Source: an uncultured Acidiferrobacteraceae bacterium (GTDB lineage: Bacteria; Pseudomonadota; Gammaproteobacteria; Acidiferrobacterales; SZUA-150). From it: a stretch of 64,000 nt of DNA. Location of the stretch: the NCBI GenBank assembly GCA_913009895.1, contig CAJVXY010000002.1, forward strand, positions 93,279-157,278. The letters run 5' to 3'. The notes below the pieces were generated by a model. It did not search any database and was not told the DNA's origin. It saw nothing but the letters and a program-made list of their open reading frames with translations. This document shows positions 1,433 to 23,194 of the stretch, piece by piece (positions within the stretch are counted from its first letter, which is position 1; every line of letters starts with the position of its first letter). The position numbers were made by a program, and so were the translations under genes.

Positions 1433-2149
1433 TTGAAATTTAATTTTTTGACAGCAATTTTGATGTCCTTGTTGATGTTATCGAGCCAGGCCACCCAGGC
1501 GGGGCCAAAGGAAATCAGGCAACAACTCAAGCAGGCCATGCCCGGCCTTGAAATCAAAGCGATTCGTAAATCGCCCATTAAAGGCCTGTATGAGATCGAG
1601 GTCGGTATGCAAATCGTCTATGCCACAGATGATGGCAAGCACCTGGTGGTTGGTAAAATCATTAAGGTAAAGAATAAAGAGAATTTAACGGAAAAAAGAC
1701 AGCAAGCTCTGCTGGCTAACATGGTCAATGGACTGCCAGAAGATTTAATGATTATTATCAAGCCCAAAAAGGTGAAGCGCACACTTACAATTTTTACTGA
1801 TGTTGACTGCCCATATTGTGCGAAATTACACGAAGAGGTCCCCGAGCTGGTGAAAGCGGGGGTCAGGATTCGATATTTACTTTACCCGAGAAATGGCCCG
1901 GCAACGCCTACTTTCCGCAAATCTGTGGCAGTTTGGTGTTCCAAAGACAGGATCAAGGCCATTGGGATGGCCAAGCGGGGCGAGAAACTTGAATACAGGG
2001 AATGCGATAACCCGGTCATGAAAAATTATAGTTTGGGCAGACATATTGGCATTACCGGTACACCGACTATTATATTGGAAGACGGCAGTATGTTGGGGGG
2101 TTATATGCCTGCCAAACAAATTCTTAAGCGGCTTGGATTGTCAGGTTAG
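1433..2149 (+). CDS. dsbC: Periplasmic thiol:disulfide interchange protein, DsbC/DsbG family
   Basis: Has a signal peptide and the thioredoxin-fold active site DVDCPYCAKLH. Length (238 aa) and C-terminal GTPTII are typical of DsbC. Start codon is TTG. Confidence 0.8.
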   Translation: MKFNFLTAILMSLLMLSSQATQAGPKEIRQQLKQAMPGLEIKAIRKSPIKGLYEIEVGMQIVYATDDGKHLVVGKIIKVKNKENLTEKRQQALLANMVNGLPEDLMIIIKPKKVKRTLTIFTDVDCPYCAKLHEEVPELVKAGVRIRYLLYPRNGPATPTFRKSVAVWCSKDRIKAIGMAKRGEKLEYRECDNPVMKNYSLGRHIGITGTPTIILEDGSMLGGYMPAKQILKRLGLSG

Positions 2150-2219
2150 AGCAGGGGCATTTCAAGAAGCATCATTTTTAAAGAAGGAATGAGCAACGAA
2201 TAAAGAAAAGCCGAGATCC

Positions 2220-3317
2220 TTGTTTCGCCTTTTTGATGCCGTAACAGAGATTTTACGGCTGAGGCGGCAACTATCTGACCTTAAAAGCAGCGTCAAGCAC
2301 AATGCCCAGGTATGGTCAGGGTTCCGGTTTATAGAAATCAGCCTGATTGGCGCCAAGACTTTCGACGAACTTATTGACGGACTGGCGGCCGGTTTCCCCC
2401 AAGCCTTTCCCGAGATAGACTGCATCACACTTGCCTGTTTTGATAATGATTATGAAATTACTCGCCTGTTAACCCAGGGCGGCAGACAGACGCCTCATCC
2501 TGCTTTTGTGCGCCTGGAGCCGGATGACTTATCTATCCTTTTTAGTAATTTTAATCGCCCGATGCTGGGTATCTGTGACGATTCCCTGCAAAGAACTTTT
2601 TTCCCAAATTTTGAAGGCATATTAAATTCTGCCGCAATCTCGCCATTGATTGTTCAAGACCGTTTAATAGGCTCGCTCAACCAGGGTAGCTGTAAAACAA
2701 ACCGGTTTTCAACTTCTTCAGCCACAGACATGTTGCAACACCTGACCGCTGTAACTGCAGTCACGGTTGATAATGTGCTTGTCCATGAACGATTGCGTGA
2801 AGATGGTTTAACCGACCCCCTGACAGGATTATCAAACCGTCGTTTCTTTGAGCGTCGTCTGAAAGAAGAAGTGAAACGCTGGTACCGCAATGACGGCGCC
2901 TTGTCATGCATGATTGTTGATATTGATTTTTTCAAGAAAGTGAATGATCAATATGGTCACCAGGTTGGCGACGATGTACTGAAAGTAGTTTCCACTGAAT
3001 TGGGTAGTGATTTGCGTGCAAGTGATGTGTTGGCCCGTTACGGTGGTGAGGAGTTTGTGCTTTTACTGCCTGAAACAGATGCTAACCATACCGTTGAGAT
3101 TGCTGAACGTTTACGGGAACGTATCGCCAACAAGCAAGACTGGGAATGTTCAGTGCCGGTATCGCTTACCATTTCAATAGGTGTATCGACATTAACCGCT
3201 GCCAACCTTGAGCAAACCCATGCCTGTAACTGGTTAGTCAGACAGGCAGATACCGCATTATATAAAGCCAAGAACCGGGGCCGGAATTGTGTCGTCCAGG
3301 CCCAGGAGTCGGGCTAG
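2220..3317 (+). CDS. Diguanylate cyclase (GGDEF) with N-terminal GAF-like sensory region
   Basis: Contains DPLTGLSNRR, RYGGEEFVLLLPETD and ALYKAKNRGRN, the GGDEF signature. The TTG start is uncertain. Confidence 0.85.
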   Translation: MFRLFDAVTEILRLRRQLSDLKSSVKHNAQVWSGFRFIEISLIGAKTFDELIDGLAAGFPQAFPEIDCITLACFDNDYEITRLLTQGGRQTPHPAFVRLEPDDLSILFSNFNRPMLGICDDSLQRTFFPNFEGILNSAAISPLIVQDRLIGSLNQGSCKTNRFSTSSATDMLQHLTAVTAVTVDNVLVHERLREDGLTDPLTGLSNRRFFERRLKEEVKRWYRNDGALSCMIVDIDFFKKVNDQYGHQVGDDVLKVVSTELGSDLRASDVLARYGGEEFVLLLPETDANHTVEIAERLRERIANKQDWECSVPVSLTISIGVSTLTAANLEQTHACNWLVRQADTALYKAKNRGRNCVVQAQESG

Positions 3318-3333
3318 GGTCCGGTTCTGGTTG

Positions 3334-4311
3334 TTATGCCGATTGTGTACTCCCTGGTGTTAGCAGGTGTAGTAAATTTACGACCGCCAGTAGTAATAAT
3401 GCAGCCACTGCGTTATGGACAGTGACTACTGACAGTGGTAGCTCTGTTAAAACAGAAGTTACTCCCAGCAAAACCTGCAATACAAGAAATACAAGAATAC
3501 TGATGCTGGTGTTGTAGAATCGCTCGTTTAAACCCGACATTTTAATTGCGAGAACTGCCAGGTATATAAAGGTAATAAACGCACCTATCCTGTGCACCAT
3601 GTGTATTGTTAACTGGATATTTCCGGCAATAACCCTTCCCTGGTCGTCCACAGAGAGTCGACGCGATATATCGAAACCATCGCTTAAATTGGCAATAGCT
3701 GTCCAGTCACCGTTACAACCAAGCAGGTTTGTGCAAGCAGGTGCAGCAAAATTAGCACTCGTCCAGGCACCAAACATAATCTGGATAACCAGGATAACCA
3801 GGCCAAGCAGCACCCAGGGTTTCATTGTTGTGAACGCGTGGTTTACCCCCATTTCAAACGGAACTAATCGTTGACTCATCCACCACAGTAAAGCCAGCAT
3901 GGCCATGCCACCCAGCAGGTTTCCCAGTGTGACAATAGGCAAATCCGGTGATGGCGTGTTGTAACCCAGTACAGATAAAAAGACAGTGAGCCCGAATACG
4001 AGCAAAGGAATAAATACGCCAGCGCCCTGGGTAGCACGTCCTCGTAATGCCATATATGCGATACCCAGTACAATAAAGCCTAACAGGGAAGCGGCAATTC
4101 GGTGAATGACACCTGCCCATGTTTTAGGTACAACACTGCGTTCATGAACCAGTGATATTTGGCCATAACACTCCGGCCAGGGCTCACAACTTAAGCCCAC
4201 GCTATCAAGGCGCATATAGGCACTTAATACCACGGCAGCAAATGTCAGTAATAATGCCAGGTTAATCAGGAGTGAATAAAGGTTGGCGGTTGATTTGCTA
4301 TTTGTCACCAT
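3334..4311 (-). CDS. ctaA: Heme A synthase (COX15/CtaA family)
   Basis: Polytopic membrane protein with the Cys pair CEPWPECYG and the HR motifs (VIHRIAASL, HMVHRIGAF) characteristic of CtaA/COX15. Confidence 0.8.
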   Translation of the reverse strand: MVTNSKSTANLYSLLINLALLLTFAAVVLSAYMRLDSVGLSCEPWPECYGQISLVHERSVVPKTWAGVIHRIAASLLGFIVLGIAYMALRGRATQGAGVFIPLLVFGLTVFLSVLGYNTPSPDLPIVTLGNLLGGMAMLALLWWMSQRLVPFEMGVNHAFTTMKPWVLLGLVILVIQIMFGAWTSANFAAPACTNLLGCNGDWTAIANLSDGFDISRRLSVDDQGRVIAGNIQLTIHMVHRIGAFITFIYLAVLAIKMSGLNERFYNTSISILVFLVLQVLLGVTSVLTELPLSVVTVHNAVAALLLLAVVNLLHLLTPGSTQSA

Positions 4312-4442
4312 AATTATTTTATCCCGTTTAAGTTCTGGCTGGGGAATTGTCTATATGTCCGAGAATACACACTAGATAACAGACCCTGGGTAGAAATGTC
4401 AAAAAGCGAATCTGCAAGTATACGTAAACAACGGTTGCAAAC

Positions 4443-4456
4443 TTAACACAGGTCAA
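4443..4456. promoter_or_regulatory. Candidate FNR/Dnr-type box TTAAC-ACAG-GTCAA (reverse complement TTGAC-CTGT-GTTAA)
   Basis: Imperfect palindrome in the divergent ctaA / heme-copper operon intergenic region. It has the same half-sites as the box upstream of nirS (15635-15648). Confidence 0.4.
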
Positions 4457-4670
4457 GTGAATGCGTAGTTGGCAGTGTTCTACTGACAATCTGGCAGTGG
4501 CAGGTTAGTACGAGACATTAAGAATATTATCATAATCTAATATTATGACTGTCGCAGTTATGTTTTTTTTCAGGCGTAAGTGCATGAACGTCTAACCAAT
4601 ATAATGTTACTACTTTGCTGCAATAATGTGGTAGATTGATTTGCAACACTAGGCAATAAAGGTTTCTAAT

Positions 4671-4700
4671 CTAATTCAATATGGTCTAATTCAATATGGA
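4671..4700. repeat. Tandem direct duplication, 2 x 15 bp (ctaattcaatatgg + 1 nt)
   Basis: ctaattcaatatggt at 4671-4685 and ctaattcaatatgga at 4686-4700. The second copy runs into the GGAGGTGG Shine-Dalgarno of the 4712 small ORF. Confidence 0.8.
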
Positions 4701-4711
4701 GGTGGCACCAG

Positions 4712-4870
4712 ATGTCCAATGAAAATCGAGAGGAGAATGAAGAAATTCCAGTAATGCAGCGTATTCTTGATAATCCGTTCCTTTTATTGTTTCTGGGAGT
4801 AGTTATTCCGACTGTGTTTTATATTATTTGGGGGATTATGGAGATTATACACGTACCTATCGCAAAATAA
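4712..4870 (+). CDS. Small single-TM protein (52 aa), possible subunit IIa-like accessory subunit of the downstream heme-copper enzyme
   Basis: Below the ORF-track length cutoff. The ATG is preceded by GGAGGTGG. Translation is MSNENREENEEIPVMQRILDNPFLLLFLGVVIPTVFYIIWGIMEIIHVPIAK, with one hydrophobic helix. It lies directly 5' of subunit II. Confidence 0.5.
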   Translation: MSNENREENEEIPVMQRILDNPFLLLFLGVVIPTVFYIIWGIMEIIHVPIAK

Positions 4871-4926
4871 TTAAGTTAAGAATTTTAACTGGAAAAACTT
4901 TTAACTAAAAAATTGGAGGTAGCACT

Positions 4927-5466
4927 ATGAGCTCCCTTTTACCACCACCAGATCGAATCTGGTGGAAAGAGCCATTAGAAAGAGTAGAGCTAATCTGGGT
5001 CGCCATTGCACTGGTGTGGAGTATTGTTATGTTCTTCATGATGCCTTATTGGCATGTGTACGGAAAACAGAACGTGTCAAACGAGGCCTACAAAACCACG
5101 CCTGAAGCCTTTAAAGCCAAGACTGAAGCAATGGTCGAACAATACACGGTGCGGACAGAGACGGCCGGAAATATACCCGTCGTCAGACCTCCTGTGGGAG
5201 ATGTTTATTTACTGGCACGGTTGTGGGAGTGGTGGCCTATTTTGGAGCTGGAAAAGGACCAGAGCTACCGCTTGCATATTGCATCACTTGACTGGCAACA
5301 CGGTTTTTCACTGCAGCCCGCAAATATCAATCTCCAGGTATTACCTGGTTATGAGATGGTGGTGACCGTCACACCGAATAAGTCTGGTGAATACTCAATT
5401 GTTTGTAACGAATATTGCGGGATCGGCCATCATAGAATGATTGGCAAGATCTACGTAACGGAATAA
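4927..5466 (+). CDS. Heme-copper oxidase superfamily subunit II, CuA-type, ba3-like (single TM plus cupredoxin)
   Basis: CuA ligand pattern DWQHGF ... CNEYCGIGHHRM (H, CxxxCxxxHxxM). The C-terminus VCNEYCGIGHHRMIGKIYVTE closely resembles the Thermus ba3 subunit II C-terminus. At 179 aa with one TM helix it matches B-family architecture. Confidence 0.85.
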   Translation: MSSLLPPPDRIWWKEPLERVELIWVAIALVWSIVMFFMMPYWHVYGKQNVSNEAYKTTPEAFKAKTEAMVEQYTVRTETAGNIPVVRPPVGDVYLLARLWEWWPILELEKDQSYRLHIASLDWQHGFSLQPANINLQVLPGYEMVVTVTPNKSGEYSIVCNEYCGIGHHRMIGKIYVTE

Positions 5467-5478
5467 GGGGAGGAGGAT

Positions 5479-7170
5479 ATGGCAAATAACAACGAATTTC
5501 GCACCTGTCCGGATACCGGATTACAGTTTCACCGACCAGCTGAGACGCTAATGAAGTTAAACGCTGTGGTAGCAGTTGTTTTTCTGCTGGTAGGTGGCAT
5601 CCTGGGTTTATTGTTAGGGTTGACACGATGGCCGGCTATTCATTTGCTTGGCGCATCAGATTTTTACAAAGTACTGACACTCCATGGTATTGATGTCTTG
5701 ATTTACTGGATCATTTTCTTTGAAATAGCAGTACTTTATTTTACATCATCGACGTTATTGAAATGTCGGCTGGCAACACCGCGTATGGCCTGGCTGGCTT
5801 TTGCACTAATGTTGATCGGTGCCGTCACTAATAATGTTGCAATTTTGCAAGGCAATTCCAGTGTGATGTTTACGTCTTACGTACCAATGCAGGCAGACCC
5901 GATGTTTTATCTTGGCCTGATTCTGTTTGCTGTTGGGGCGCTCATTGCCAGTTTTGTTTTTCTTGGAACCCTGGTGATTGCCCGGGCCGAGAAGACATAT
6001 GAGGGGTCTATGCCGTTGGTGACTTTTGGTGCCCTGACAGCAGCTATAATTGCAATATTTACCATTGCCTCGGGCGCGATCATTTTAATACCGACATTTT
6101 TATGGTCGGTGGGCTTGATTGAAGGTATTGATCCGATTATGTACCGGGTGATCTGGTGGGCCTTCGGCCATTCCTCGCAGCAAATCAACATGGCCACCAT
6201 GGTTGCAGTGTGGTATGCCGTCGCTGCCGTTGCGTTTGGTGCCAAGCCTTTGTCAGAAAAAATGTGTCGCAGCGCTTTCCTGTTGTACATATTGTTCCTG
6301 CAACTCGCTAGTGCCCATCATATACTCGTGGATCCTGGCATTAGTTCAACCTGGAAAATATTTAATACCAGTTATGCCATGTACCTGGCGGTGCTTGCCA
6401 GTATGATTCATGGCTTGACAGTTCCAGGCGCAATCGAGGCCGCTCAGCGCAAACGGGGTTTCAATAAAGGTTTGTTCGAATGGTTGCGCAAGGCACCCTG
6501 GAGCAATCCCTCATTTTCCGGCGTATTCCTGTCTATCATTATTTTTGGGTTCCTGGGCGGCATATCAGGCGTAGTGATGGGGACTGAGCAAATTAACCTG
6601 ATTATCCATAATACCCTTTATGTACCAGGACACTTTCATGCGACAGTTGCTACCGGTACAACCCTGGCCTTTATGGCTTTAACGTATTGGTTAGTGCCGG
6701 TATTGTTTCGTCGCCAGGTAATTTTTCCAAAGCTTGCAAGTTTGCAACCGTACCTTTTTGGCTTGGGCATGTCAGGGGTCGCCTTGTTTATGATGGGCGC
6801 AGGAACACTTGGCATACCGCGACGGCATTGGGATATTACCTTCGCCGACTCACCATTGACTCATAATTTCCCGGAGATGGCCAACGCGTTGCTCGGTTTC
6901 ATGGGCGTATCAGTACTCCTGGCCGTGGTAGGTGGCGGCCTATTCTGTTTACTGATAGTAGGTTCATTATTATTTGGCAAGCGTTTGAGCCTGACTGAGA
7001 AGGGCGAAACGCCGTTGATAGCAGAACCCGTTACCAGTTACGAAGGTGTTGGAATTGGTAAAATAGTGGCACCGGGGACACTGGTGCTGGCGATGGTGTT
7101 TTTGACAGCATTCGTTCTCTACTATTTTATTAACTGGAAATTCCTGTCGCAGACCTGGGGTTTGAGTTGA
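5479..7170 (+). CDS. Heme-copper oxidase superfamily subunit I, B-family-like, lacking the helix-VI cross-link tyrosine; candidate NO reductase (sNOR/eNOR-type)
   Basis: 563 aa. Ligand His are H69 (LTLHG), H231 (GHSSQQ), H280/H281 (SAHHIL) and H385/H387 (PGHFHAT). These parallel ba3 H72/H233/H282/H283/H384/H386. Position 235, equivalent to ba3 Y237, is Gln. Confidence 0.85.
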   Translation: MANNNEFRTCPDTGLQFHRPAETLMKLNAVVAVVFLLVGGILGLLLGLTRWPAIHLLGASDFYKVLTLHGIDVLIYWIIFFEIAVLYFTSSTLLKCRLATPRMAWLAFALMLIGAVTNNVAILQGNSSVMFTSYVPMQADPMFYLGLILFAVGALIASFVFLGTLVIARAEKTYEGSMPLVTFGALTAAIIAIFTIASGAIILIPTFLWSVGLIEGIDPIMYRVIWWAFGHSSQQINMATMVAVWYAVAAVAFGAKPLSEKMCRSAFLLYILFLQLASAHHILVDPGISSTWKIFNTSYAMYLAVLASMIHGLTVPGAIEAAQRKRGFNKGLFEWLRKAPWSNPSFSGVFLSIIIFGFLGGISGVVMGTEQINLIIHNTLYVPGHFHATVATGTTLAFMALTYWLVPVLFRRQVIFPKLASLQPYLFGLGMSGVALFMMGAGTLGIPRRHWDITFADSPLTHNFPEMANALLGFMGVSVLLAVVGGGLFCLLIVGSLLFGKRLSLTEKGETPLIAEPVTSYEGVGIGKIVAPGTLVLAMVFLTAFVLYYFINWKFLSQTWGLS

Positions 7171-7291
7171 CCCGTGTTTCAGTAAGTTAATGCCTGGCAG
7201 GTAGTTTCAGGATGCCTGCCTGGCGATCATTTGTGATGGCCATAGCTGGTGAGGAAAAGTTGATATAAAAACTTAATCGAAAATAAATACT

Positions 7292-8161
7292 ATGCTGAGT
7301 TTACTCGTTAATGTTTTTAAACTTAGAATCGGCTTGCTGATTGCACTAACAGCGTTAGCCGGATTTGCAGTTACGCCTGGCAGGGATTTGGCATCCTGGC
7401 AAATTGCTGTTCTGGGCCTGCTGGTGCTGATGTCTTCAGCCAGTGCTGGTGCCTTTAACCAGTATGCTGAACGAGATCTGGATGCGAACATGAAGCGTAC
7501 CCGGAATCGGCCGTTTGTCACGGGTGAGCTCAATCATAATAGTACCTGGTTATGGGGTATTGCAGGATTATTGGTATTCGCCGTAACCACAGCTGCCTGG
7601 TTATTTAATGCAGCCACCGCATTTTATATTTTTATGGGTGCATTTGTGTATGCGGTGATTTATACCGTATGGCTTAAGAGAAGAAGTGTATTAAATATAG
7701 TTATCGGTGGTCTGGCGGGTAGTTTTGCAGTACTTGGCGGGGCTGCTGCTGCTGATCCCAACCTGGGTCCAGTGGCAATATTACTGGCAGTGGTATTATT
7801 TTTATGGACACCTCCGCACTTCTGGAGCCTGGCGATTGCCCTGCACAAGGACTATGCGGCAGCCAGGGTGCCAATGTTGCCCGTGGTAGTTGGCGATGCT
7901 GCTGCTGCTAAAATTATTTTTACCAATACGGTGTTGCTGGTAATTGCATCATTGGCACCGGTTTATTATGGCCTTGGCTGGGTGTATTTAATTTGTGCAA
8001 TGTCAGGCGGTATATATTTTCTTTATAAAAGCTATCAACTTATCTATACACCTACAAAAAAGATGGCGATGGCCAATTTTTTTGCCTCGATTATCCAGCT
8101 TTCCCTGATCCTGATTGGTGTTATGCTTGATACACAGTTTACAAGATGGGAAGTTTTTTGA
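7292..8161 (+). CDS. ctaB: Protoheme IX farnesyltransferase (heme O synthase)
   Basis: UbiA-family motif NQYAERDLDANMKRTRNRP in a polytopic protein of 289 aa. Confidence 0.85.
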   Translation: MLSLLVNVFKLRIGLLIALTALAGFAVTPGRDLASWQIAVLGLLVLMSSASAGAFNQYAERDLDANMKRTRNRPFVTGELNHNSTWLWGIAGLLVFAVTTAAWLFNAATAFYIFMGAFVYAVIYTVWLKRRSVLNIVIGGLAGSFAVLGGAAAADPNLGPVAILLAVVLFLWTPPHFWSLAIALHKDYAAARVPMLPVVVGDAAAAKIIFTNTVLLVIASLAPVYYGLGWVYLICAMSGGIYFLYKSYQLIYTPTKKMAMANFFASIIQLSLILIGVMLDTQFTRWEVF

Positions 8162-9000
8162 ACTTAAAGCAGAAAAAAGTTTTAATTTTTTTTGTTGTTT
8201 TATTGTTGTTTTTTTCTCCAGCACACTGGCTGGCAGCTGCGGAAACACCTGTAACCAGCAAACCTGAGTTACGGAAATTTGAAAAATCCTCGGCTTTGGT
8301 AACCAGCCAGGGCGCCATTGGCCACGTAACCGGTGATTATACGTTCTACGATCGCCAGCAGCGAAAGGTACTACTCTCAAGCTATCGCGGTAAACCCCTG
8401 ATCATAAGTTTGATATTTACAAGCTGCCATCATATCTGTCCGACAACTACACAAAATTTAGCGAATGTGGTTAAACTTGCCCAGGAGGTTCTGGGTGAAG
8501 ATAGTTTTAACATTGTTAGCATCGGCTTTGATGTACAAAATGACACGCCTGATGCGATGCGCAATTTTGCAATTCAACAAGGCGTGGATGAAATACCTGG
8601 CTGGGAATTTTTAAGTGCTGACGCACCTACAATAAATGCATTGACTGGTGAACTGGGTTTCCAGTTCTTTCCTTCGGCAGGTGGGTTTGATCATTTAATC
8701 CAAACCAGCCTGATCGATGCCGAGGGCGCTGTATATCGCCAAGTGTATGGTACAAAATTCAATACACCATTACTGGTAGATCCATTAAAAGAGCTGGTTT
8801 TTGGGCGACCGGTTAAAGGTTCGCTGGTAACATCGATACACAATAGAATTCGGCTGTTTTGTACTGTCTATGACCCGGCAAGTGGTCGTTATATTTTTGA
8901 TTACTCCCTTTTTGTCGGGATGATTATTGGTTTTATAATATTAATTTCAATTTCTATATGGCTGGTTCGTGAATGGCGAAAATCAGCCACAAGTAAATGA
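8146..9000 (+). CDS. senC: SCO1/SenC family copper chaperone, with N-terminal signal and C-terminal TM helix
   Basis: Thioredoxin-like CxxxC site (FTSCHHICPTT) plus a downstream conserved His (GGFDHLIQTSLID). The C-terminal hydrophobic helix is FVGMIIGFIILISISIWLV. Overlaps the ctaB stop. Confidence 0.75.
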   Translation: MGSFLNLKQKKVLIFFVVLLLFFSPAHWLAAAETPVTSKPELRKFEKSSALVTSQGAIGHVTGDYTFYDRQQRKVLLSSYRGKPLIISLIFTSCHHICPTTTQNLANVVKLAQEVLGEDSFNIVSIGFDVQNDTPDAMRNFAIQQGVDEIPGWEFLSADAPTINALTGELGFQFFPSAGGFDHLIQTSLIDAEGAVYRQVYGTKFNTPLLVDPLKELVFGRPVKGSLVTSIHNRIRLFCTVYDPASGRYIFDYSLFVGMIIGFIILISISIWLVREWRKSATSK

Positions 9001-9100
9001 GAAAAATAATACAAGTAACAAGTAAGTGCAGAATTACATTATGGTATCTTTTTCTCGATATGCGTAAAGTTCGGTATTGTTTAATTAAAGGAGCCTCTCT

Positions 9101-10681
9101 TTGCTAGAAAGAACGCAGAGAAGTGGTCGACGACTCTTCGAATGGGTAGAGGCCGGATTCAATCGAATTGGCGGCCATCGCTGGAATCCATTTTATCAGC
9201 TCGGGGCCCTGTCATTTTTCTTTTTCTGGATCATTACTGTCAGCGGCCTGTATCTTTACATTTTCTTTAGAACTGGCACGACAGCAGCTTATGAATCAGT
9301 AGAATACCTGACTATTGATCAGTGGTATCTTGGCGGTGTGATGCGTAGCTTGCATCGTTACGCATCGGATGCGTTTGTAGTTACAATTGTATTGCATATT
9401 CTGCGTGAGTTCTTCATTGGTCGTTACCGCTACTTTCGCTGGTTCTCCTGGGTTACCGGTGTCCCGTTGCTATGGCTAACGTTTGCGGCGGGAATCGGGG
9501 GCTATTGGCTGGTATGGGACAGCCTGGCCCAGTACATTGCGATAACTACGGCTGAATGGCTGGATTGGCTGCCTTTTCTTACCGATCCGATTGCGCGTAA
9601 TTTTCTCAACCAGGCAAGCATGAGTGATCGATTCTTTTCACTACTGTCATTCCTGCATATCGCCATACCTTTATTCTTGCTATTGGGTATGTGGATACAT
9701 ATCCAGCGTATGACACTTCCTCGCTCCAATCCAACACGTATCCTGGCTGTGGGTACTATCTCGGCGCTGTTAGTGCTTTCGTTTATCCTGCCAGCCACGA
9801 GCCAGGAACCAGCCAACCTTGATAATCTTGTCTTTACGGTAAATCTTGACTGGTTTTATCTCAATTTTTACCCTTTGCTTGATAAATGGTCGGCTGGCAG
9901 CATCTGGGCACTGGTTTTTGGTGTTACATTGTTGTTAGTGGTGATGCCCTGGTTACCGCCTCACAAACCAGAACCCGTTGCCGTAGTCGATCTCGAGAAT
10001 TGCAATGGATGTGGGCGCTGTTTCGATGACTGTCCATTTGGCGCAGTTGATATGTTTCCACGTACAGATAATTTACCATTTTCCCATGAGGCCGTTGTTG
10101 ACAGCGCATTATGCGCCAGTTGCGGCATTTGTGTTGGTTCTTGCCCAACCGCAACGCCATTCAGGCGGGCGACAGCTTTGGTGCCAGGTATAGATATGCC
10201 GCAGTTAAAGATCGCGGATATCCGGGATAAAACCGTACAAGCCGCAGAAAAATTAACTGGTCATGACAGGGTGATAGTATATGGTTGTCGAAATGGGACC
10301 GACATAAACAGGTTACAGGGATCAGGCGTGGCGGTAATTTCATTACCGTGTATTTCTGCTTTACCGCCGTCTTTTATAGATTTTGTGATTGCACGTGGCC
10401 ATGCTGAGGGTGTGTTCCTCACAGGTTGTCAGCAGGGCGATTGTTACTACCGCTTGGGCATTGACTGGACAGAACAACGTATAGCCGGACTTCGTGATCC
10501 TGCGCTTCGAAAAAAGGTGCCACGTGAGCGTGTAGCCACATGCTGGTCCGGCCCGGTAGGATTTGCCAGGCAAAAAGCCGAACTGGTTTCATTCAGGGCC
10601 CAGTTGCTGGAAATGGGACCTAACAGAAGGAACGGTGCAATCATTAATAAAACCGATACACCTGACAGCAAAGGGGGGTGA
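9101..10681 (+). CDS. Fusion protein: di-heme cytochrome b-like membrane domain + 2x[4Fe-4S] ferredoxin + MvhD/FlpD-like domain
   Basis: Two helices each carry His pairs at i/i+14 (HRYASDAFVVTIVLH and HIAIPLFLLLGMWIH), as in bc1/b6f cytochrome b. These are followed by CNGCGRCFDDCP and CASCGICVGSCP. The last domain has VYGCRNG...LPCISALP...LTGCQQGDCYYRLG, which is MvhD-like. TTG start with AGGAG 8 nt upstream. Confidence 0.7.
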   Translation: MLERTQRSGRRLFEWVEAGFNRIGGHRWNPFYQLGALSFFFFWIITVSGLYLYIFFRTGTTAAYESVEYLTIDQWYLGGVMRSLHRYASDAFVVTIVLHILREFFIGRYRYFRWFSWVTGVPLLWLTFAAGIGGYWLVWDSLAQYIAITTAEWLDWLPFLTDPIARNFLNQASMSDRFFSLLSFLHIAIPLFLLLGMWIHIQRMTLPRSNPTRILAVGTISALLVLSFILPATSQEPANLDNLVFTVNLDWFYLNFYPLLDKWSAGSIWALVFGVTLLLVVMPWLPPHKPEPVAVVDLENCNGCGRCFDDCPFGAVDMFPRTDNLPFSHEAVVDSALCASCGICVGSCPTATPFRRATALVPGIDMPQLKIADIRDKTVQAAEKLTGHDRVIVYGCRNGTDINRLQGSGVAVISLPCISALPPSFIDFVIARGHAEGVFLTGCQQGDCYYRLGIDWTEQRIAGLRDPALRKKVPRERVATCWSGPVGFARQKAELVSFRAQLLEMGPNRRNGAIINKTDTPDSKGG

Positions 10682-10684
10682 GCC

Positions 10685-11077
10685 ATCATCTTAATTGAGT
10701 GGAAAGAAGAATTCTCTGTTGGCGTGCCGGGAGTTGATCATGAGCATAAAGTACTGGTTGATCTTTTGAACAGGCTTTATGAAAATTTGATGCGAGAGTC
10801 GACTGCTGAAGAGGTGGAAGAATTTCTTGGCGAGATTTACGCCAGGATATCAGCGCATTTTGCATTGGAGGAAAATATCATGCGCGAGCAACATTATGAC
10901 CAGTATAGTGAACACAAGGCGGACCATGAGCGGTTGCTGGACGAGATTCGTGACATCATGGATGACCATACTGCAATGGAAAATTCGGACAAGGACAAGT
11001 TTGCCGAACGCTTAAAATCATGGTTTGTTAATCACTTCAAGACCCAGGATGCCAGGCTTCATGGACGTTTGTCATAA
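10685..11077 (+). CDS. Hemerythrin-like (bacteriohemerythrin) protein; true start unclear
   Basis: Metal-ligand pattern VDHEH, HFALEE, HKADHE, NHFKTQD. The track ORF starts at GTG 10724, but the conserved N-terminal IEWKEEFSVGV lies upstream. It is reachable only from ATC/ATT codons (10685-10696) or by reading through the upstream TGA (10679-10681). Confidence 0.75.
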   Translation: MILIEWKEEFSVGVPGVDHEHKVLVDLLNRLYENLMRESTAEEVEEFLGEIYARISAHFALEENIMREQHYDQYSEHKADHERLLDEIRDIMDDHTAMENSDKDKFAERLKSWFVNHFKTQDARLHGRLS

Positions 11078-11158: not shown

Positions 11159-11704
11159 ATGATGACCAGGGTATTACAATATATAGGCCAGGTAGTAGCA
11201 TACGGAGGGTTCATTATTTTTGTCGGCTACTTGTCTGCTGCACCTGCCTATGTTCACCTGCAGCCAGGCCAGGCTCAAATAAAGCTTAGCTTTAGTCATG
11301 CGGGAAAGCCCGTCAGTGAATGTCGTGAACGTAGCGATGAAGAGCTTGCACGTCTTGCGCCTAATATGCGCGTAAGAAAAGTATGCCCCAGAGAACGTTC
11401 CGGTGTAGCTGTAGTGCTGGAGGTGGATGACAAGTTGTTGTATAGCGATATTTTACAACCCTCCGGCCTGAAAAAAGACGGGACATCAACAACATACAGA
11501 AAATTCACGGTTAAAGCCGGTAAGTATAAAATAAAAATAAAACTCAAGGATGACTTCCGGAAATCAACGACCATCAAAGATGTGTCAAAGTTAAATGCAG
11601 GTGATTTTAATTACACATATTCCCGGAAAGTCTATCTCGGTGCAGGAAAAATAATGGTCATTGATTTTAATAAGGAGGCAGATGGATTTGTTTTCAGTTT
11701 TTGA
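11159..11704 (+). CDS. Hypothetical N-terminally anchored protein (181 aa)
   Basis: One N-terminal TM helix (VVAYGGFIIFVGYLSAAPAYV) followed by a Lys-rich soluble domain that looks beta-rich. I recognise no family. Placed between the hemerythrin and the second heme-copper-like gene. Confidence 0.5.
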   Translation: MMTRVLQYIGQVVAYGGFIIFVGYLSAAPAYVHLQPGQAQIKLSFSHAGKPVSECRERSDEELARLAPNMRVRKVCPRERSGVAVVLEVDDKLLYSDILQPSGLKKDGTSTTYRKFTVKAGKYKIKIKLKDDFRKSTTIKDVSKLNAGDFNYTYSRKVYLGAGKIMVIDFNKEADGFVFSF

Positions 11705-11793: not shown

Positions 11794-13161
11794 ATGCAGG
11801 AAGATTTCATACTATCGGTACCAAAAGATAACCGTCGGGATTTAGCCAAAGGCTGGCTCTGGCTGGGTTTAATTTCTCTATTAGTATCAGGAATTTTTTC
11901 AGTTCTCCTGGTAGTCTTTCGCACGCCCTATATCCAGAATATTTTCTCCTCGGTAGATTTTTTTCGAACTGCTCTGGTTGTCCATGTAGATCTTTCTGTT
12001 TTGGTCTGGTTTCTTGCTTTTGGTGGCGTGTTCTGGAGTTTGAATTCCACTACCAGTTTCATACGGCTCGGTTGGTCAGCATTATTCTTTGCCACGCTGG
12101 GTACGATAGTGATGGTGCTGGCGCCATTTATTGGTAATGGCAACCCGCTGATGAGTAATTATATTCCTGTCTTGCAGGATTCAGTGTTTATAACAGGTTT
12201 GTTGTTTTTTGCATTTGGTATCACCTTGCTGGTTCTGCGAAGTATGTTTGCTATCCCACTGGTAGGGCTGCAAATTACAGGTGTTGGTTCATTACGTTTC
12301 GGCCTGAATACCGCTGCTATATCTGCAATTATGGCGCTGCTCGCATTTTTCTGGTCTTTTCTGGCTATGCCGGATTTTGTTACTGGAAAAGCCTTTTACG
12401 AACTCCTGTTTTGGGGTGGCGGCCACATGCTGCAATTTACATATACATTGCTCATGCTCGTCGCCTGGTTGTGGTTGGCTACTGCTTCGGGTCTCCGCAT
12501 TGCCCTGAGTCCAAGAGTTGTGCTGCTTCTTTTCATATTAGGTCTAATGGCGGTATTCACGGTTCCGCTAATTTATTATTCCTACAAAATAATTTCAGTT
12601 GAACACATTAAACTCTTTACCTGGTTGATGGCGTATGGTGGCAGCCTGGCCACACTACCATTGGCTTTGGCAATTCTTCACGGTTTTTTTATTAGCTCAC
12701 CAGCATCAGGATCACAGACACCCTTACGAGCAAGTTTGATCATGTCTATGATTTTATTTGGTGTCGGTGGTGTTATCGGTTTCCTGATCGAGGGGAGTAA
12801 CGTTACGATTCCCGCCCATTATCACGGTTCTATTGTCGGCGTTACATTGGCATTTATGGGGATGACGTATAATTTACTGCCGCGTTTTGGTTATAAGTAT
12901 CCTGATGTGAAATTGGCTCGTATTCAACCCTATATATATGGAGGTGGCCAGTTATTGCATGTATCAGGATTAGTATGGTCAGGAGGATATGGTGTCCAGC
13001 GAAAAGTTGCAGGTATTGAGCAGGGGCTCGACGACATGGAAAAAATTGCCGCGATGGGCTTGATGGGCCTGGGGGGATTGGTCGCGATTATAGGCGGACT
13101 GATGTTTCTCCTAGTGGTTTATAAAGCCATGGCAAACAGGAAAACGCAAGAAACAGCCTAA
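11794..13161 (+). CDS. Heme-copper oxidase subunit I-like polytopic membrane protein with incomplete metal-ligand set
   Basis: 455 aa and about 12 TM. Has LVVHVDL (H64), FWGGGHMLQF (H211) and IPAHYHGSIVG (H342/H344), at spacings reminiscent of HCO helices II, VI and X. There is no HH pair where helix VII would be; YY261-262 sits there. Confidence 0.55.
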   Translation: MQEDFILSVPKDNRRDLAKGWLWLGLISLLVSGIFSVLLVVFRTPYIQNIFSSVDFFRTALVVHVDLSVLVWFLAFGGVFWSLNSTTSFIRLGWSALFFATLGTIVMVLAPFIGNGNPLMSNYIPVLQDSVFITGLLFFAFGITLLVLRSMFAIPLVGLQITGVGSLRFGLNTAAISAIMALLAFFWSFLAMPDFVTGKAFYELLFWGGGHMLQFTYTLLMLVAWLWLATASGLRIALSPRVVLLLFILGLMAVFTVPLIYYSYKIISVEHIKLFTWLMAYGGSLATLPLALAILHGFFISSPASGSQTPLRASLIMSMILFGVGGVIGFLIEGSNVTIPAHYHGSIVGVTLAFMGMTYNLLPRFGYKYPDVKLARIQPYIYGGGQLLHVSGLVWSGGYGVQRKVAGIEQGLDDMEKIAAMGLMGLGGLVAIIGGLMFLLVVYKAMANRKTQETA

Positions 13162-13985: not shown

Positions 13986-15524
13986 ATGGTGGGCATATTC
14001 TTGCTCACGGTGAGTGCTGGTGTATTTGCTGGTGGTACACTGGAAACCTACCCTGAAATAAAAAATTTTTTCCCTGCTTTAACCCGTGTCGGTGATATTG
14101 CTGGCGAGCCGCCTGCAGCACCTGTGTACCAGCAAGGTAAACTTCTGGGATATGTATTTTCTACACAAGCAATAGCACCTATTCCTGCTTATTCGGGTAA
14201 ACCTATTAACATCCTGGTTGGCTTGAATCTTTCCGGACAGATAACGGGCCTTAAGATAATCGAACATCACGAGCCAATTTTATTGGTTGGCGTTTCTGAA
14301 AAACAATTAAAAGAATACATTGATCAGTACCAGGGCGTGGACATTTTTGATCGCGTCCGGGTAGGGGCAGAAAAGAAAGCGGGCTCAGTGGGTATTGACA
14401 CGATTAGTGGCGCGACCATTACTGTGATGGTCTCCAATGCCACTATTGTCAATTCTGCCAGAACCGTTGCGGCCAGGTACGGCATTACTCGTAGTAGAAA
14501 GTCGGGTAAAAGCTCGCCAGTAATTTTAACAAGACAGGCCCCGGTTGCGGCTGAAAAAGAACTTCCGGCAAATAACCCGGCTGAGACTCCCTTGGTCTCA
14601 GAAGCGCCAGACCTGGAGCGGGCCTGGGTCACCATCTGGGAAGGTCGTGCTATTGAGATTGGTATTTTGGTTTTTGCCCTGTTCTTATTGACAGCAATCC
14701 TGTTATTTCAGGATTGGATTGTACGACGACCAACCCTGTATGAATATTTACGGAATGGTTATTTATTATTTACTGTTTTTTTTATTGGTGGTTATGCGTT
14801 GGCACAGCTTTCTATTGTTAATGTTTTGACCTTTGTTCATGCTTTTGTCCATGACTTCAGGTGGGAAACCTTTGCCCTGGACCCCCTTATATTTATTCTC
14901 TGGGTATTTGTTGCATTCACTTTGTTGTTATGGGGGCGCGGGGTGTACTGCGGCTGGTTATGTCCATTTGGTGCTATGCAGGAATTGATAAACATGGTTG
15001 CCCGTCGCTTTAAGGTTAAGCAGTGGGAATTCCCGACTATGGTTCATGAGCGTCTTTGGGCAATAAAATACGTGGTGTTGATTGCATTGTTCGGCATCTC
15101 ACTACAGTCACTATCATTGGCAGAGTATTACGCAGAAATCGAACCATTTAAAACCACGATTCTGCGTTTTGATCGGGCATGGCCATTTGTGCTTTATGTG
15201 GTGGTCCTGTTAATGATTTCTATAGTCAATCGCAAGTTTTATTGTAAATATATTTGCCCCCTGGCAGCTGCCCTCATAATTCCGGCCCAAAACCGGGTTT
15301 TTGACTGGGTAAGAAGACGCAATGAATGTGGTAAACCATGCCAGGTCTGCGCTGATTTATGTGAAGTACAGGCGATCGCACCAACTGGTGAAATTAACAA
15401 GAATGAATGTCATTATTGTCTGGACTGCCAGGTAACATACTGGAATGAATACAAATGCCCACCCCTGGTCCAGGAACGTAAAAAGCGGGAACGGCATATT
15501 GCTGTTCATAGCCTTTCGAATTAA
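13986..15524 (+). CDS. nirI: NosR/NirI-family membrane protein (periplasmic FMN-binding domain, TM domain with CX3CP motifs, C-terminal polyferredoxin)
   Basis: FMN_bind-like GIDTISGATITV, CGWLCPFGAMQE and CKYICPLAA, and C-terminal CGKPCQVCADLCE / CHYCLDCQ...CPP. Sits directly 5' of nirS. It is shorter than classical NosR, and its start is uncertain. Confidence 0.75.
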   Translation: MVGIFLLTVSAGVFAGGTLETYPEIKNFFPALTRVGDIAGEPPAAPVYQQGKLLGYVFSTQAIAPIPAYSGKPINILVGLNLSGQITGLKIIEHHEPILLVGVSEKQLKEYIDQYQGVDIFDRVRVGAEKKAGSVGIDTISGATITVMVSNATIVNSARTVAARYGITRSRKSGKSSPVILTRQAPVAAEKELPANNPAETPLVSEAPDLERAWVTIWEGRAIEIGILVFALFLLTAILLFQDWIVRRPTLYEYLRNGYLLFTVFFIGGYALAQLSIVNVLTFVHAFVHDFRWETFALDPLIFILWVFVAFTLLLWGRGVYCGWLCPFGAMQELINMVARRFKVKQWEFPTMVHERLWAIKYVVLIALFGISLQSLSLAEYYAEIEPFKTTILRFDRAWPFVLYVVVLLMISIVNRKFYCKYICPLAAALIIPAQNRVFDWVRRRNECGKPCQVCADLCEVQAIAPTGEINKNECHYCLDCQVTYWNEYKCPPLVQERKKRERHIAVHSLSN

Positions 15525-15747: not shown

Positions 15748-17535
<1,788 letters not shown>

Positions 17536-17618
17536 AGGATAATAACTTCGGCTAATTATGCGGGGGTTAATTTGTGCCCCCGTATTTTTTGAATAGTAAT
17601 ATTGACAGAGGTATTGCC

Positions 17619-18416
17619 ATGAAAGATTCAGCCTGTGTGTATTTGGTTGGTACTGGACCTGGTGATCCTGATTTGTTAACAGTTAAAGCGCTACGTTTGT
17701 TGCAAAGTGCCGATGTTGTAATCTACGATCGCCTGGTTAATAAAGCGATCCTGCAACAAGTCCCCGCCGGCGTACTTAAAATATTTGTTGGTAAGGCAAC
17801 AAGCAATCACGCATTCTCCCAGGATGAAACCAATCGGTTAATGGTTAAACTTGCCGATAAAAAAAGAACTATTGTCAGGCTGAAAGGTGGCGACCCCTTT
17901 ATTTTTGGGCGTGGTGGTGAGGAGGCGTTGTACCTGGCCCAAAGGGACATCCCTTTTGAAATTGTGCCCGGGATAACGGCTGCCACGGCAGCTGCTACTT
18001 ATGCCGGAATACCGCTGACACACCGTGGATTAGTGCAAAGTGTACAGTTCATCACAGGCCACGGCCGGAATAACAAACCGCTGGATTTTGATTGGCAGAA
18101 ACTGGCCGACCCACAGACCACACTTGTTGTTTATATGGGGCTGGCGACTATTGGCGAAATAAGCAAACAGTTGATTGTTGCCGGGTTGCCGGCAGATATG
18201 CCAGTAGCCGCAATTGAAAATGGATCAACAGCCAGGCAACAGCGCTTGTTAACCACGTTAAAGGATGTACCAAAAGATGTAAAACTATATGGACTTCAGC
18301 CACCTGTTTTATTTGTCATTGGCAGAGTAGTGGGGCTGGCAGAATCCCTGGACTGGTTTATTACAGATGACCTTGATTCATGTGAAGGTGAACAGGATAA
18401 GCATGCGCAAGGCTAG
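17619..18416 (+). CDS. nirE: Uroporphyrinogen-III C-methyltransferase (SUMT) for heme d1 synthesis
   Basis: VYLVGTGPGDPDLLTVKALRLLQSADVVIYDRLV and GGDPFIFGRGGEE. The track ORF begins at 17574; the internal ATG at 17619 (MKDSACVYLVG) fits the family N-terminus. Confidence 0.9.
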   Translation: MKDSACVYLVGTGPGDPDLLTVKALRLLQSADVVIYDRLVNKAILQQVPAGVLKIFVGKATSNHAFSQDETNRLMVKLADKKRTIVRLKGGDPFIFGRGGEEALYLAQRDIPFEIVPGITAATAAATYAGIPLTHRGLVQSVQFITGHGRNNKPLDFDWQKLADPQTTLVVYMGLATIGEISKQLIVAGLPADMPVAAIENGSTARQQRLLTTLKDVPKDVKLYGLQPPVLFVIGRVVGLAESLDWFITDDLDSCEGEQDKHAQG

Positions 18417-19912: not shown

Positions 19913-19925
19913 GGGAGGGCTTTTG

Positions 19926-20938: not shown

Positions 20939-20939
20939 T

Positions 20940-21389: not shown

Positions 21390-21405
21390 ATGAGAAGCTC
21401 AAGAA

Positions 21406-21936: not shown

Positions 21937-21966
21937 TAAACAAAAACTGGTGTAAAAGGTCTCAGG

Positions 21967-23169: not shown

Positions 23170-23194
23170 GGATTATCAACAGGATTATAAAGTC

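Follow-up and report, generated by a model that had tools for sequence, protein, structure and literature searches.

The subject of this report is a gene at positions 9101 to 10681 of a 64,000-nucleotide stretch of DNA (hereafter the window; contig CAJVXY010000002.1, positions 93,279 to 157,278 of the forward strand) from an uncultured Acidiferrobacteraceae bacterium. Its predicted product, the fusion, is a di-heme cytochrome b of the bc1 type joined to a 2x[4Fe-4S] ferredoxin and an MvhD-like domain. The gene stands in an operon for an eNOR-type heme-copper oxidoreductase (HCO), and the fusion would form the core of a cytochrome b module dedicated to that operon, one with neither a Rieske partner nor a quinone-reducing (Qi) site. 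Among enzymes that produce N2O, eNOR has been validated only recently and is abundant in the environment; a conserved module linked to its operon could connect it to cellular metabolism.

Domain architecture of the fusion protein

The original prediction, made from the letters of the window, had described a membrane cytochrome b followed by a ferredoxin and an MvhD-like domain. This reading is borne out by hidden Markov models, by conservation among homologues and by fold comparison. The features concerned are as follows.

9101..10681, forward strand: cytochrome b - 2x[4Fe-4S] - MvhD-like fusion, 526 aa; open reading frame with a TTG start codon 8 nt 3' of an AAGGAG Shine-Dalgarno ribosome-binding site
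9101..9970, forward strand: membrane module, predicted helices A-F of a bc1-type cytochrome b, residues ~1-290 (Pfam, PDB profile, Foldseek, petB alignment)
9353-9355, 9395-9397, 9656-9658 and 9698-9700, forward strand: putative heme ligands H85, H99, H186 and H200, respectively (alignment to Azospirillum petB)
9845..9859, forward strand: position of the quinol-oxidation (Qo) motif, L249-D250-W251-F252-Y253 (aligns with PEWYF of bc1 cytochrome b)
9977..10156, forward strand: 2x[4Fe-4S] ferredoxin domain, residues ~293-352, two CxxCxxCxxxCP motifs (Fer4 family matches)
10253..10618, forward strand: MvhD/FlpD-like domain, residues ~385-506, putative [2Fe-2S] (PF02662, MvhD chains, Foldseek)

The domain and motif matches lie far beyond chance. 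PF00033 (Cytochrome_B) matches residues 29-201 with 67.2 bits against a cut-off of 27.2 (E 2e-18), and PF02662 (FlpD) matches residues 408-506 with 41.5 bits against 22.3 (E 1.6e-10). Several Fer4 models exceed their curated cut-offs over residues 293-351, with Fer4_7 at 36.3 against 27 (bacterial ferredoxin family, PF12838 and related), and in NCBIfam residues 293-508 match the C-terminal ferredoxin and MvhD part of HdrA2. Conservation was assessed among 25 full-length homologues of 54-94% identity, and statements of invariance for the fusion refer to this set. Both histidine pairs noted previously, H85/H99 in HRYASDAFVVTIVLH and H186/H200 in HIAIPLFLLLGMWIH, are spaced i/i+14, and all four residues are invariant. 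They align with the bL and bH heme ligands of the bc1 reference, Azospirillum petB (flanked by petA and the gene for cytochrome c1), in keeping with the earlier reading of their spacing as the bis-His spacing of bc1 cytochrome b. The concern that the N-terminal domain might not resemble cytochrome b, or that the histidine pairs might vary among homologues, is contradicted by the bc1 fold of the domain and by this invariance.

All sequence and fold matches of the membrane part are to cytochrome b of the bc1/b6 type, and a di-heme fold like that of NarI is not indicated. A PDB profile search finds cytochrome b6 (E 3.7e-26) as well as mitochondrial and bacterial cytochrome b over residues 22-301, equivalent to helices A-F, and Foldseek places residues ~1-290 of the AlphaFold2 model (pLDDT 69.5) on bc1 cytochrome b with probability 1.0. 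The sequence LDWF aligns with the PEWY of Azospirillum cytochrome b (IVPEWYFLPFY) and would be a variant Qo motif. Its residues D250, W251 and F252 are invariant, as is Y253, and the xDWF position is conserved also in the FNR-type, CPR-type and distant long forms of the cytochrome b described below. Invariant residues of the cd loop are G131, G134, Y135, W136, W139, D140, Q144, E152 and D155. The segment after the second helix-D histidine is five residues shorter than in petB, and owing to this deletion the position of the Qi-site histidine, five residues after the bH ligand, is lost. The long de-loop on the n-side (negative side) of the membrane, which carries the Asp/Lys of Qi, is absent from the fusion in the same alignment, and the membrane part stops after helix F, with helices G/H missing. 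A tblastn search of the window and 91 fetched loci with Azospirillum PetA and cytochrome c1 returned no match at E<=1e-3, and the annotations of neighbouring genes likewise include no Rieske or c1 gene. The segment from transmembrane (TM) helix 5 through the ef loop to TM helix 6, searched by itself, gave no PDB sequence match. As judged from the alignment, the retained Qo motif, the deleted Qi elements and the lack of a nearby Rieske or c1 gene mark a departure from a functional bc1/b6f complex.

In bc1 complexes the N-terminus of cytochrome b is on the n-side. With six TM helices, the FeS domains of the fusion are therefore predicted to be cytoplasmic, a placement also favoured because the cytoplasm is the sole compartment that would mature such domains without a Tat (twin-arginine translocation) signal. 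The topology check proposed with the original prediction thus gave six helices homologous to A-F and FeS domains facing the cytoplasm.

The two CxxCxxCxxxCP clusters were found as described, at C301/304/307/311 and C338/341/344/348, and all eight of these cysteines are invariant, as are C396, C417 and C443; C448 is conserved in at least 90% of homologues. In profile searches the ferredoxin domain is similar to polyferredoxins and to the ferredoxin domain at the C-terminus of HdrA. The last domain matches the MvhD chains 9sw2_D and 5odc_D by sequence, and in the predicted model ~130 C-terminal residues superimpose on 5odc_D (Foldseek TM-score 0.72, rmsd 3.5). The cysteine pattern claimed to be typical of MvhD is present (YGC396, LPC417, GC443QQGDC448), but only three of its four cysteines, C417, C443 and C448, align with MvhD cysteines, C396 lying opposite no cysteine in the pairwise alignment with 5odc_D. 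No solved structure with the order cytochrome b - ferredoxin - MvhD was found among the PDB profile and Foldseek matches, and no [NiFe] hydrogenase or heterodisulfide reductase is annotated among the neighbours in the window and the loci examined. In the Mvh-Hdr structure, the MvhD-type [2Fe-2S] is the distal, partner-facing cluster. By analogy it would be distal in the fusion as well, with the two [4Fe-4S] clusters bridging to the n-side heme.

The eNOR operon and its conservation

The gene had been placed inside a terminal-reductase operon, and its surroundings agree with this, as subunits I and II of an eNOR-type HCO are encoded upstream. The order in the window is CtaA (reverse strand), a 52-aa TM peptide, subunit II, subunit I, CtaB, SCO1 and the fusion, followed by a hemerythrin, a 181-aa protein (here unk181), a 455-aa HCO-like protein, a NosR/NirI-like protein, and NirS with heme d1 genes. 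The genes of the operon are listed below.

3334..4311, reverse strand: heme a synthase CtaA (COX15-CtaA), divergent
4712..4870, forward strand: 52-aa single-TM peptide upstream of subunit II
4927..5466, forward strand: HCO subunit II, 179 aa, with a complete CuA motif, H...CNEYCGIGHHRM
5479..7170, forward strand: HCO subunit I, 563 aa, predicted eNOR type (PF00115, E 1e-69)
7292..8161, forward strand: heme o synthase CtaB/CyoE, UbiA family
8146..9000, forward strand: SCO1/SenC copper chaperone with a CHHIC motif, directly upstream of the fusion (PF02630)
10724..11077, forward strand: bacteriohemerythrin-like protein, 117 aa, no TM helix (Pfam and NCBIfam)
11159..11704, forward strand: 181-aa partner unk181 (homology to the C-terminal extension of long fusion forms)
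11794..13161, forward strand: 455-aa divergent HCO-like protein (weak PF00115)

In subunit I, the motif G230-H231-S-S-Q-Q235-I-N places a glutamine at the position of the cross-linked tyrosine, four residues after the CuB histidine, and H280-H281 and H385-x-H387 are kept. The motif and the histidine sextet H69, H231, H280, H281, H385 and H387 are invariant in eight orthologues across phyla. According to the published residue code as tabulated in PMC8756737 (Table A4, after Hemp and Gennis, 2008), Gln at this position denotes eNOR, Tyr the O2 reductases, Asn sNOR and bNOR, and Asp gNOR. Because Gln occupies the tyrosine position, the HCO of the window is assigned to the eNOR type and is a predicted NO reductase. 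Murali et al. (2024; PMC11214002) showed that the eNOR of R. marinus truly reduces NO and contains a modified form of heme A; it is the only eNOR for which this activity is demonstrated. The genes expected of an eNOR operon, for a CuA-type subunit II, CtaA, CtaB and SCO1, are all present in the window. The sNOR cluster norSY-senC-orf1 of ammonia oxidisers was also considered and was ruled out, since subunit I has Gln and not Asn at the tyrosine position; the Bacillus gene analogous to orf1 of that cluster encodes a 190-aa protein with six TM helices.

The arrangement is widely conserved. The sample comprised the 80 best GTDB loci, with subunit I counted in those having at least 4 kb upstream. 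Counting co-occurrence with this HCO clade had been suggested as a check, and eNOR-type subunit I lies upstream on the same strand in all 63 informative loci (frameshifted in one). SCO1 is directly upstream of the fusion in 78/80 loci, unk181 lies no more than 1.3 kb downstream in 69/71, and a hemerythrin is found within 2.5 kb in 64/71. CtaB (47/80), CtaA (14/80) and an orthologue of the 455-aa HCO-like protein (15/80) also occur nearby. The order eNOR II - eNOR I - (CtaB) - SCO1 - fusion - unk181 - hemerythrin is almost invariably conserved. In a cultured Defluviimonas strain (sp. SAOS-178) the unit stands alone as an operon on a plasmid (NZ_CP156080), with stop and start codons that overlap, and such overlaps also occur among Rhodocyclaceae. 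The same neighbourhood is found around relatives of 27-33% identity in SAR324, Rokubacteria, Planctomycetes and an archaeal metagenome-assembled genome (MAG). In five of the six distant loci examined the relative of the fusion adjoins COX1 and SCO1, four have a small subunit-II-like gene, and NirS often adjoins; the sixth has a weak COX1 fragment with nir genes nearby, and no SCO1.

Two of the distant loci have further peculiarities. In the archaeal MAG (L088, JGI 3300005096; 4852-9241) a 630-aa fusion is followed by a separate 115-aa 2x[4Fe-4S] ferredoxin and stands beside CopD/DUF4149, SCO1 and a split COX1, a context rich in copper handling. The Rokubacteria locus (L089) has tandem COX1-family genes of 555 and then 505 aa (2112-5293) between subunit II and CtaB, with SCO1, the fusion, a 177-aa unk181-like gene and NirS downstream. 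The second of these COX1 genes may be the counterpart, at another position, of the 455-aa HCO-like protein.

In a search of plasmids, the fusion was found on that of Defluviimonas alone, and eNOR-like genes on plasmids of Thermus and Thermomicrobium. The eNOR cluster of a Thermus thermophilus plasmid (GHGAQQVN; one locus inspected) has neither SCO1 nor the fusion nearby, which indicates that the module is accessory rather than universal, and not obligatory for catalysis. In this cluster (L092, TTHNAR1 plasmid 4), the eNOR-type subunit I at 5983-7668 has GHFKG where the family has GHFH, and an Rrf2 regulator and a DUF542 protein are encoded but no hemerythrin. GHFKG would put a lysine in place of the second helix-X histidine, consistent with the His/Lys-ligated low-spin heme variant described by Murali et al. 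(2024; PMC11214002).

Among the smaller genes of the operon, the bacteriohemerythrin-like protein has invariant His/Glu/Asp ligand positions. The 52-aa peptide has counterparts of 48-71 aa upstream of subunit II in the Rhodocyclaceae, SAR324, Rokubacteria, Planctomycetes and Thermus loci, and probably represents a third, small subunit of the kind of CbaC/IIa in ba3-type enzymes. A scan of the region for promoters and terminators did not rise above background (29 found, 21 +/- 5 expected). The best sigma-70-like match (TTGTCG-16-TATAAT, 10/12; 8912-8939, forward strand) lies inside the 3' end of SCO1, ~160 nt upstream of the fusion start, and could be an internal promoter; the intergenic gap before the fusion is 100 nt.

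The 181-aa protein belongs to no Pfam or NCBIfam family. It is homologous to the ~170-aa C-terminal extension of many fusion forms of 690-720 aa (blastp down to 4e-39), and also to the C-terminus of cytochrome b forms that have no FeS part, and is by these homologies a Rosetta-stone partner of the fusion. Its model (AlphaFold2 pLDDT 93) predicts an N-terminal TM helix and an eight-strand beta-sandwich, with no PDB fold match at E<1e-3 in Foldseek. In the longer relatives of the fusion, one extra TM helix follows the MvhD domain and precedes the unk181-like domain. Since this helix follows a cytoplasmic domain, the sandwich is placed on the p-side (positive side) of the membrane. The resulting topology, an N-terminal anchor and a p-side domain, is that of the Rieske protein. 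Conserved residues are H47, C55, C76, R56, R58, R71, R78 and R80, with M70 at 90%; they may serve in copper binding, a disulfide or merely docking to acidic p-side loops of cytochrome b. Other identities were considered for unk181. A cupredoxin was ruled out, as no fold matched at E<1e-3, and so was a subunit II of the 455-aa HCO-like protein, given that unk181 occurs in 69/71 loci and the latter in 15/80. A Rieske-like FeS protein is unlikely, with no twin-arginine signal and just two cysteines and one histidine conserved. The lack of this signal and the fusion behind a cytoplasmic domain in long forms both argue that unk181 is not a Tat-exported FeS protein.

The membrane part also occurs with other partners. 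Representatives with 50-56% identity in this part carry other domains in place of the FeS and MvhD domains, among them Fer2, FAD_binding_6 and NAD_binding_1 in P0155 (the FNR-type form) and Flavodoxin, FAD_binding_1 and NAD_binding_1 in P0162 (827 aa), a form resembling cytochrome P450 reductase (CPR). In Gallionella (L068) and Polaromonas (L079), the Fer2-FAD-NAD form is encoded exactly between SCO1 and the unk181 homologue, followed by a 470-aa HCO-like gene and then by the FeS/MvhD form. Contigs from Rhodocyclaceae likewise have both forms in one denitrification locus. All swapped forms keep the four histidines and the DWFY motif. Modules of this kind take in electrons from NAD(P)H, for example in P450 BM3, Hmp, phthalate dioxygenase reductase (PDR) and NOX/FRE, and to our knowledge PDR/Hmp-type and CPR-type modules serve as an NAD(P)H-oxidising input in all characterised systems. 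Two further architectures were observed, one with a C-terminal cytochrome c domain added to the FeS/MvhD form on the same cytochrome b (P0449, 814 aa), and one in which the unk181 domain follows cytochrome b immediately, the FeS part being absent (P0217/P0185, 453-465 aa).

Proposed direction and purpose of electron transfer

It had been proposed that the fusion would wire the quinone pool or the periplasmic side to a cytoplasmic FeS chain. The anatomy fits this proposal, with a Qo-like pocket kept and Qi lost, but the direction and partners of the wiring are a matter of inference. The reading put forward here, tentatively and with something short of even confidence, is that of a transmembrane electron conduit serving eNOR, from cytoplasm to periplasm. 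A cytoplasmic reductant would donate to the distal MvhD-type [2Fe-2S], from which electrons would move by way of the two [4Fe-4S] clusters to the n-side heme at the bH position, cross the membrane to the p-side heme at the bL position, and exit at the conserved p-side pocket, capped by unk181. The recipient would be the eNOR system, with CuA of subunit II as the best guess and turnover as the purpose, so that eNOR would have a dedicated electron entry bypassing bc1 and cytochrome c. The wiring read from the sequences comprises a p-side pocket with the Qo motif, two heme sites, no Qi and a three-cluster cytoplasmic chain; it is dedicated to eNOR operons and has an obligate partner protein on the p-side. 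Outward flow as such, from the cytoplasm to the p-side, is by analogy rather probable, because the swapped-in reductase modules are of the NAD(P)H-oxidising type and because the membrane potential assists outward electron movement. The exclusive association with eNOR-type HCOs points to an eNOR-specific role, and for this reason turnover supply is placed first.

Several points weigh against a conduit of this kind. Its direction rests on analogy, and the AlphaFold2 model of the fusion is just moderately confident. The conserved Qo motif and the invariant cd-loop residues would not be needed by an outward conduit and fit quinol chemistry better. The fusion gene stands among assembly genes (CtaB, SCO1), and the operon has no gene for a cytoplasmic donor to the MvhD-like domain, the hemerythrin possibly excepted. 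The Thermus plasmid eNOR cluster does without SCO1 or the fusion nearby, and purified R. marinus eNOR is reported to reduce NO with tetramethyl-p-phenylenediamine (TMPD)/ascorbate alone (PMC11214002).

Quinol oxidation at a Qo-type site with electron bifurcation and inward flow is the chief opposing model; it is considered rather unlikely, and is essentially what the Ferrigenium preprint proposes (bioRxiv 10.64898/2026.01.22.701106). One electron would go to eNOR, possibly via unk181 as a substitute for the Rieske protein, and the other from bL to bH and along the FeS chain into the cytoplasm, where its acceptor would be NAD(P)+ for the FNR-type paralogue and, for the fusion, ferredoxin or some other partner. 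Reverse electron flow would in this way be driven by NO reduction. The Qo motif and cd loop are the most conserved part of the fusion, and the FeS chain takes the topological place of the deleted Qi elements, two facts that this model accounts for best. The module is also strictly tied to a terminal reductase of very high potential. The predicted unk181 also has the topology of the Rieske iron-sulfur protein (ISP) and conserved His, Cys and Met, but it belongs to no Pfam family, matches neither a cupredoxin nor a Rieske fold and is not Tat-exportable, and no one-electron cofactor motif is recognised on the p-side. Many hosts fall in known lithoautotroph lineages that need reverse electron transport (Sulfuricaulis, Acidiferrobacterales, Gallionella), yet the module is found also in apparent heterotrophs (Defluviimonas, Bradyrhizobium, Halieaceae). 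Inward transfer would oppose the membrane potential and run uphill to NAD(P)+ or ferredoxin, and we know of no CPR-type or PDR-type module that runs backwards. The more specific version, a Rieske-independent bifurcating site of the Qo type, capped by unk181 and making a low-potential cytoplasmic reductant, seems improbable.

A role in maturation would keep the outward direction and change its purpose, cytoplasmic electrons being delivered to assembly chemistry of eNOR on the p-side and not to turnover. The electrons might keep the cysteines or copper of SCO1/SenC reduced for CuA/CuB loading, with unk181 as a copper-handling partner, or might serve the O2-dependent heme-A synthase CtaA, with the hemerythrin supplying or buffering O2. 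Precedents exist for either target. Yeast heme-A synthase Cox15 depends on ferredoxin and ferredoxin reductase, cbb3 assembly employs the [4Fe-4S] cupric reductase CcoG, and FRE and STEAP are NADPH-heme metalloreductases. In the loci, SCO1 and the fusion form the tightest gene pair (78/80), the fusion gene follows CtaB, CtaA is nearby in the window, and the archaeal locus has CopD next to SCO1. The hemerythrin is conserved (64/71), the Thermus cluster lacks SCO1 and the fusion together, and the Fer2-FAD-NAD and flavodoxin-FAD-NADPH modules are classical reductase partners of oxygenases. The modified heme A of eNOR is reported to need O2 for its synthesis (PMC11214002). A Sco-like set of one His and two Cys, plus Met70, in unk181 would suit a putative role in copper handling. 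CtaA is nearby in only 14/80 loci, and maturation of CuA and heme a is common to A- and B-family oxidases, which manage without the module, whereas in all loci examined the module is found with HCOs of the eNOR type only. With five cofactors and a conserved Qo-like pocket, the fusion would also be elaborate for an assembly factor. Maturation as the main purpose is rated as doubtful and ranked after turnover supply, but the adjacency of SCO1, the hemerythrin and the oxygenase-reductase character of the swapped modules keep it in serious contention. It is most improbable that the fusion acts by itself, as a redox enzyme or sensor with no part in eNOR function, such as an NAD(P)H/ferredoxin:quinone oxidoreductase or an NO/O2 sensor acting with the hemerythrin, whose position in the operon would reflect co-regulation only. 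The Qo-like pocket does suggest quinone chemistry, and the hemerythrin could be a gas sensor, but the gene order is held across phyla at 27-33% sequence identity. The promoter-like site at 8912-8939 (10/12) and the 100-nt gap before the fusion gene would allow separate expression; against them stand a promoter scan not above background (29 vs 21 +/- 5) and the overlapping stop and start codons of the Defluviimonas and Rhodocyclaceae loci.

Known systems, earlier reports and neighbouring genes

The fusion can be compared with several known systems. With bc1/b6f cytochrome b it shares the predicted fold, helices A-F, the four histidines spaced i/i+14, the cd loop and the position of the Qo motif; it differs in having no Rieske ISP or c1/f partner, Qi histidine, de-loop or helices G/H, and in the FeS domains fused to its n-side. 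Its 2x[4Fe-4S] and MvhD arrangement matches model positions 571-774, the C-terminus, of HdrA2, and the last domain resembles MvhD of Mvh-Hdr (5ODC) in predicted fold (TM-score 0.72) and in three aligned cysteines. Unlike Mvh-Hdr, neither the window nor the loci include an HdrA flavin domain, HdrBC or a hydrogenase, and the chain of the fusion would end in putative membrane hemes and not in FAD. In QmoABC, HdrDE and DsrMK, too, a membrane cytochrome b with two hemes is wired to FeS proteins of the cytoplasm; QmoC even combines cytochrome b and FeS parts in one chain, and QmoB carries an MvhD-like domain. However, their cytochrome b is of the NarI/HdrE type and not of the bc1 type, and they serve sulfur metabolism or methanogenesis and not an HCO. 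In NOX/FRE ferric reductases, MsrQ and CcoG, which are transmembrane or membrane-bound heme/FeS proteins, electrons derived from cytoplasmic NAD(P)H reach copper or an acceptor on the p-side. Paralogues of the FNR and CPR types share this domain logic, but the membrane folds are unrelated, and the fusion has no PF01794 or FixG-type domain. The best NCBIfam match over residues 31-203 of the fusion is to ExtP, a b-type cytochrome of the selenite/tellurite reduction operon (NF040969/NF040970 ExtP/ExtQ; E 1.8e-30), with a weak match to ExtQ at residues 219-291; the score is 106 bits against a cut-off of 290 bits, and architecture and operon differ.

Relatives of the fusion are numerous. A word-indexed search gave more than 6,000 clusters at E<=1e-5, the top 120 of which all have the same architecture, an exhaustive search of representatives at 50% identity gave 529 at E<=1e-30, and relatives are encoded in at least 567 GTDB species genomes. 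Among the hosts are Gamma-, Alpha- and Betaproteobacteria, with distant relatives (27-33% identity) in SAR324, Nitrospira, Rokubacteria, Planctomycetes and the archaeal MAG. Source annotations give them generic names ('cytochrome b N-terminal domain-containing protein' or 'hydrogenase iron-sulfur subunit').

The statement that no characterised example was known holds in part. No biochemical characterisation of the fusion was found in the literature, but the architecture had been published in 2014 and again in 2026, so that it is already noted and functionally uncharacterised. A 'PDWF-FeS clade' of cytochrome b was named by Kao and Hunte (2014; PMC4122944), who observed the absence of a Rieske gene; the clade is treated there without genomic or functional context. 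By motif and architecture, the fusion agrees with the clade in its xDWF, 4Fe-4S and MV-hydrogenase delta elements and lack of a Rieske protein; it differs in having L, not P, at the first motif position, where some homologues have P. In the eNOR operon of Ferrigenium straubiae, a recent preprint describes gene 2878407323 as cytochrome b + [Fe-S] and gene 2878407319 as cytochrome b + [Fe-S] + FAD + NADH, calling these fusions 'rather unusual' and possible markers of Ferrigenium (bioRxiv 10.64898/2026.01.22.701106). It puts forward a quinol:NAD+ oxidoreductase and a supercomplex in which the reduction of NO would be coupled to that of NAD+, and reports the proteins in the proteome during denitrifying Fe(II)-oxidising growth (10.64898/2026.01.22.701106). 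By its description this operon, with eNOR II, eNOR I, heme o synthase, sco1 and the cytochrome b fusions, matches the Gallionella locus L068. The module is here found to be widespread, in at least 567 GTDB species genomes and several phyla. Four features described here, namely the MvhD-like domain, the loss of Qi, the hemerythrin and unk181 as fusion partner, do not figure in the preprint. New in the present analysis are the assignment of the neighbouring HCO to eNOR and not sNOR, the breadth and strictness of the synteny, and the link to the hemerythrin. The Rosetta-stone partner unk181 and the interchangeable NAD(P)H-reductase modules are likewise new, as is the predicted loss of Qi with retention of the Qo motif.

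Any of the three roles weighed above, conduit, bifurcation or maturation, would if true be a new use of the cytochrome b scaffold without a Rieske protein or Q-cycle, and bifurcation would add a new, quinone-based and NO-driven reverse electron flow in denitrifying lithoautotrophs. The module would also improve the prediction of N2O-producing genotypes from metagenomes. The set of fusion, unk181 and hemerythrin, together with the cultured Defluviimonas host and Magnetospirillum, makes the question testable; Magnetospirillum is reported to have eNOR (Murali et al., 2024; PMC11214002), and the tractable Magnetospirillum magneticum AMB-1 is among those named in the PDWF-FeS clade.

The 455-aa HCO-like protein (11794-13161, forward strand) keeps H64 in helix II, H211 in helix VI (FWGGGH) and AHYHG in helix X, and has Tyr-Tyr (LIYYSY) in place of the two helix-VII histidine ligands of CuB/FeB. 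It has no NCBIfam match and only a weak match to PF00115. Its orthologues usually lie directly after the unk181 gene and are accessory in a subset of genomes. The protein matches no NOR family of the cited papers and may be the 'eNOR scaffold protein' of Ferrigenium. A NosR/NirI-like protein of 512 aa with FMN_bind and Fer4_5 domains is encoded upstream of nirS (13986-15524, forward strand). It matches positions 382-680 of the 680-position NosR model with 674 bits against a cut-off of 1000 bits, and represents a shortened variant tied to nir and not to nos. A complete cd1 nitrite reductase and heme d1 cluster follows at 15790-24757 (forward strand), comprising NirS, a TP_methylase (NirE-like), a small cytochrome c, a NirF-like protein, four NirD/L/G/H-like proteins, a radical-SAM NirJ-like protein and a second cytochrome c-cd1 protein (NirN-like, 23087-24757). 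Farther along the window, at 32156-33829 on the reverse strand, a 557-aa protein has a PP2C phosphatase domain at its N-terminus and a Ser/Thr protein kinase domain at its C-terminus.

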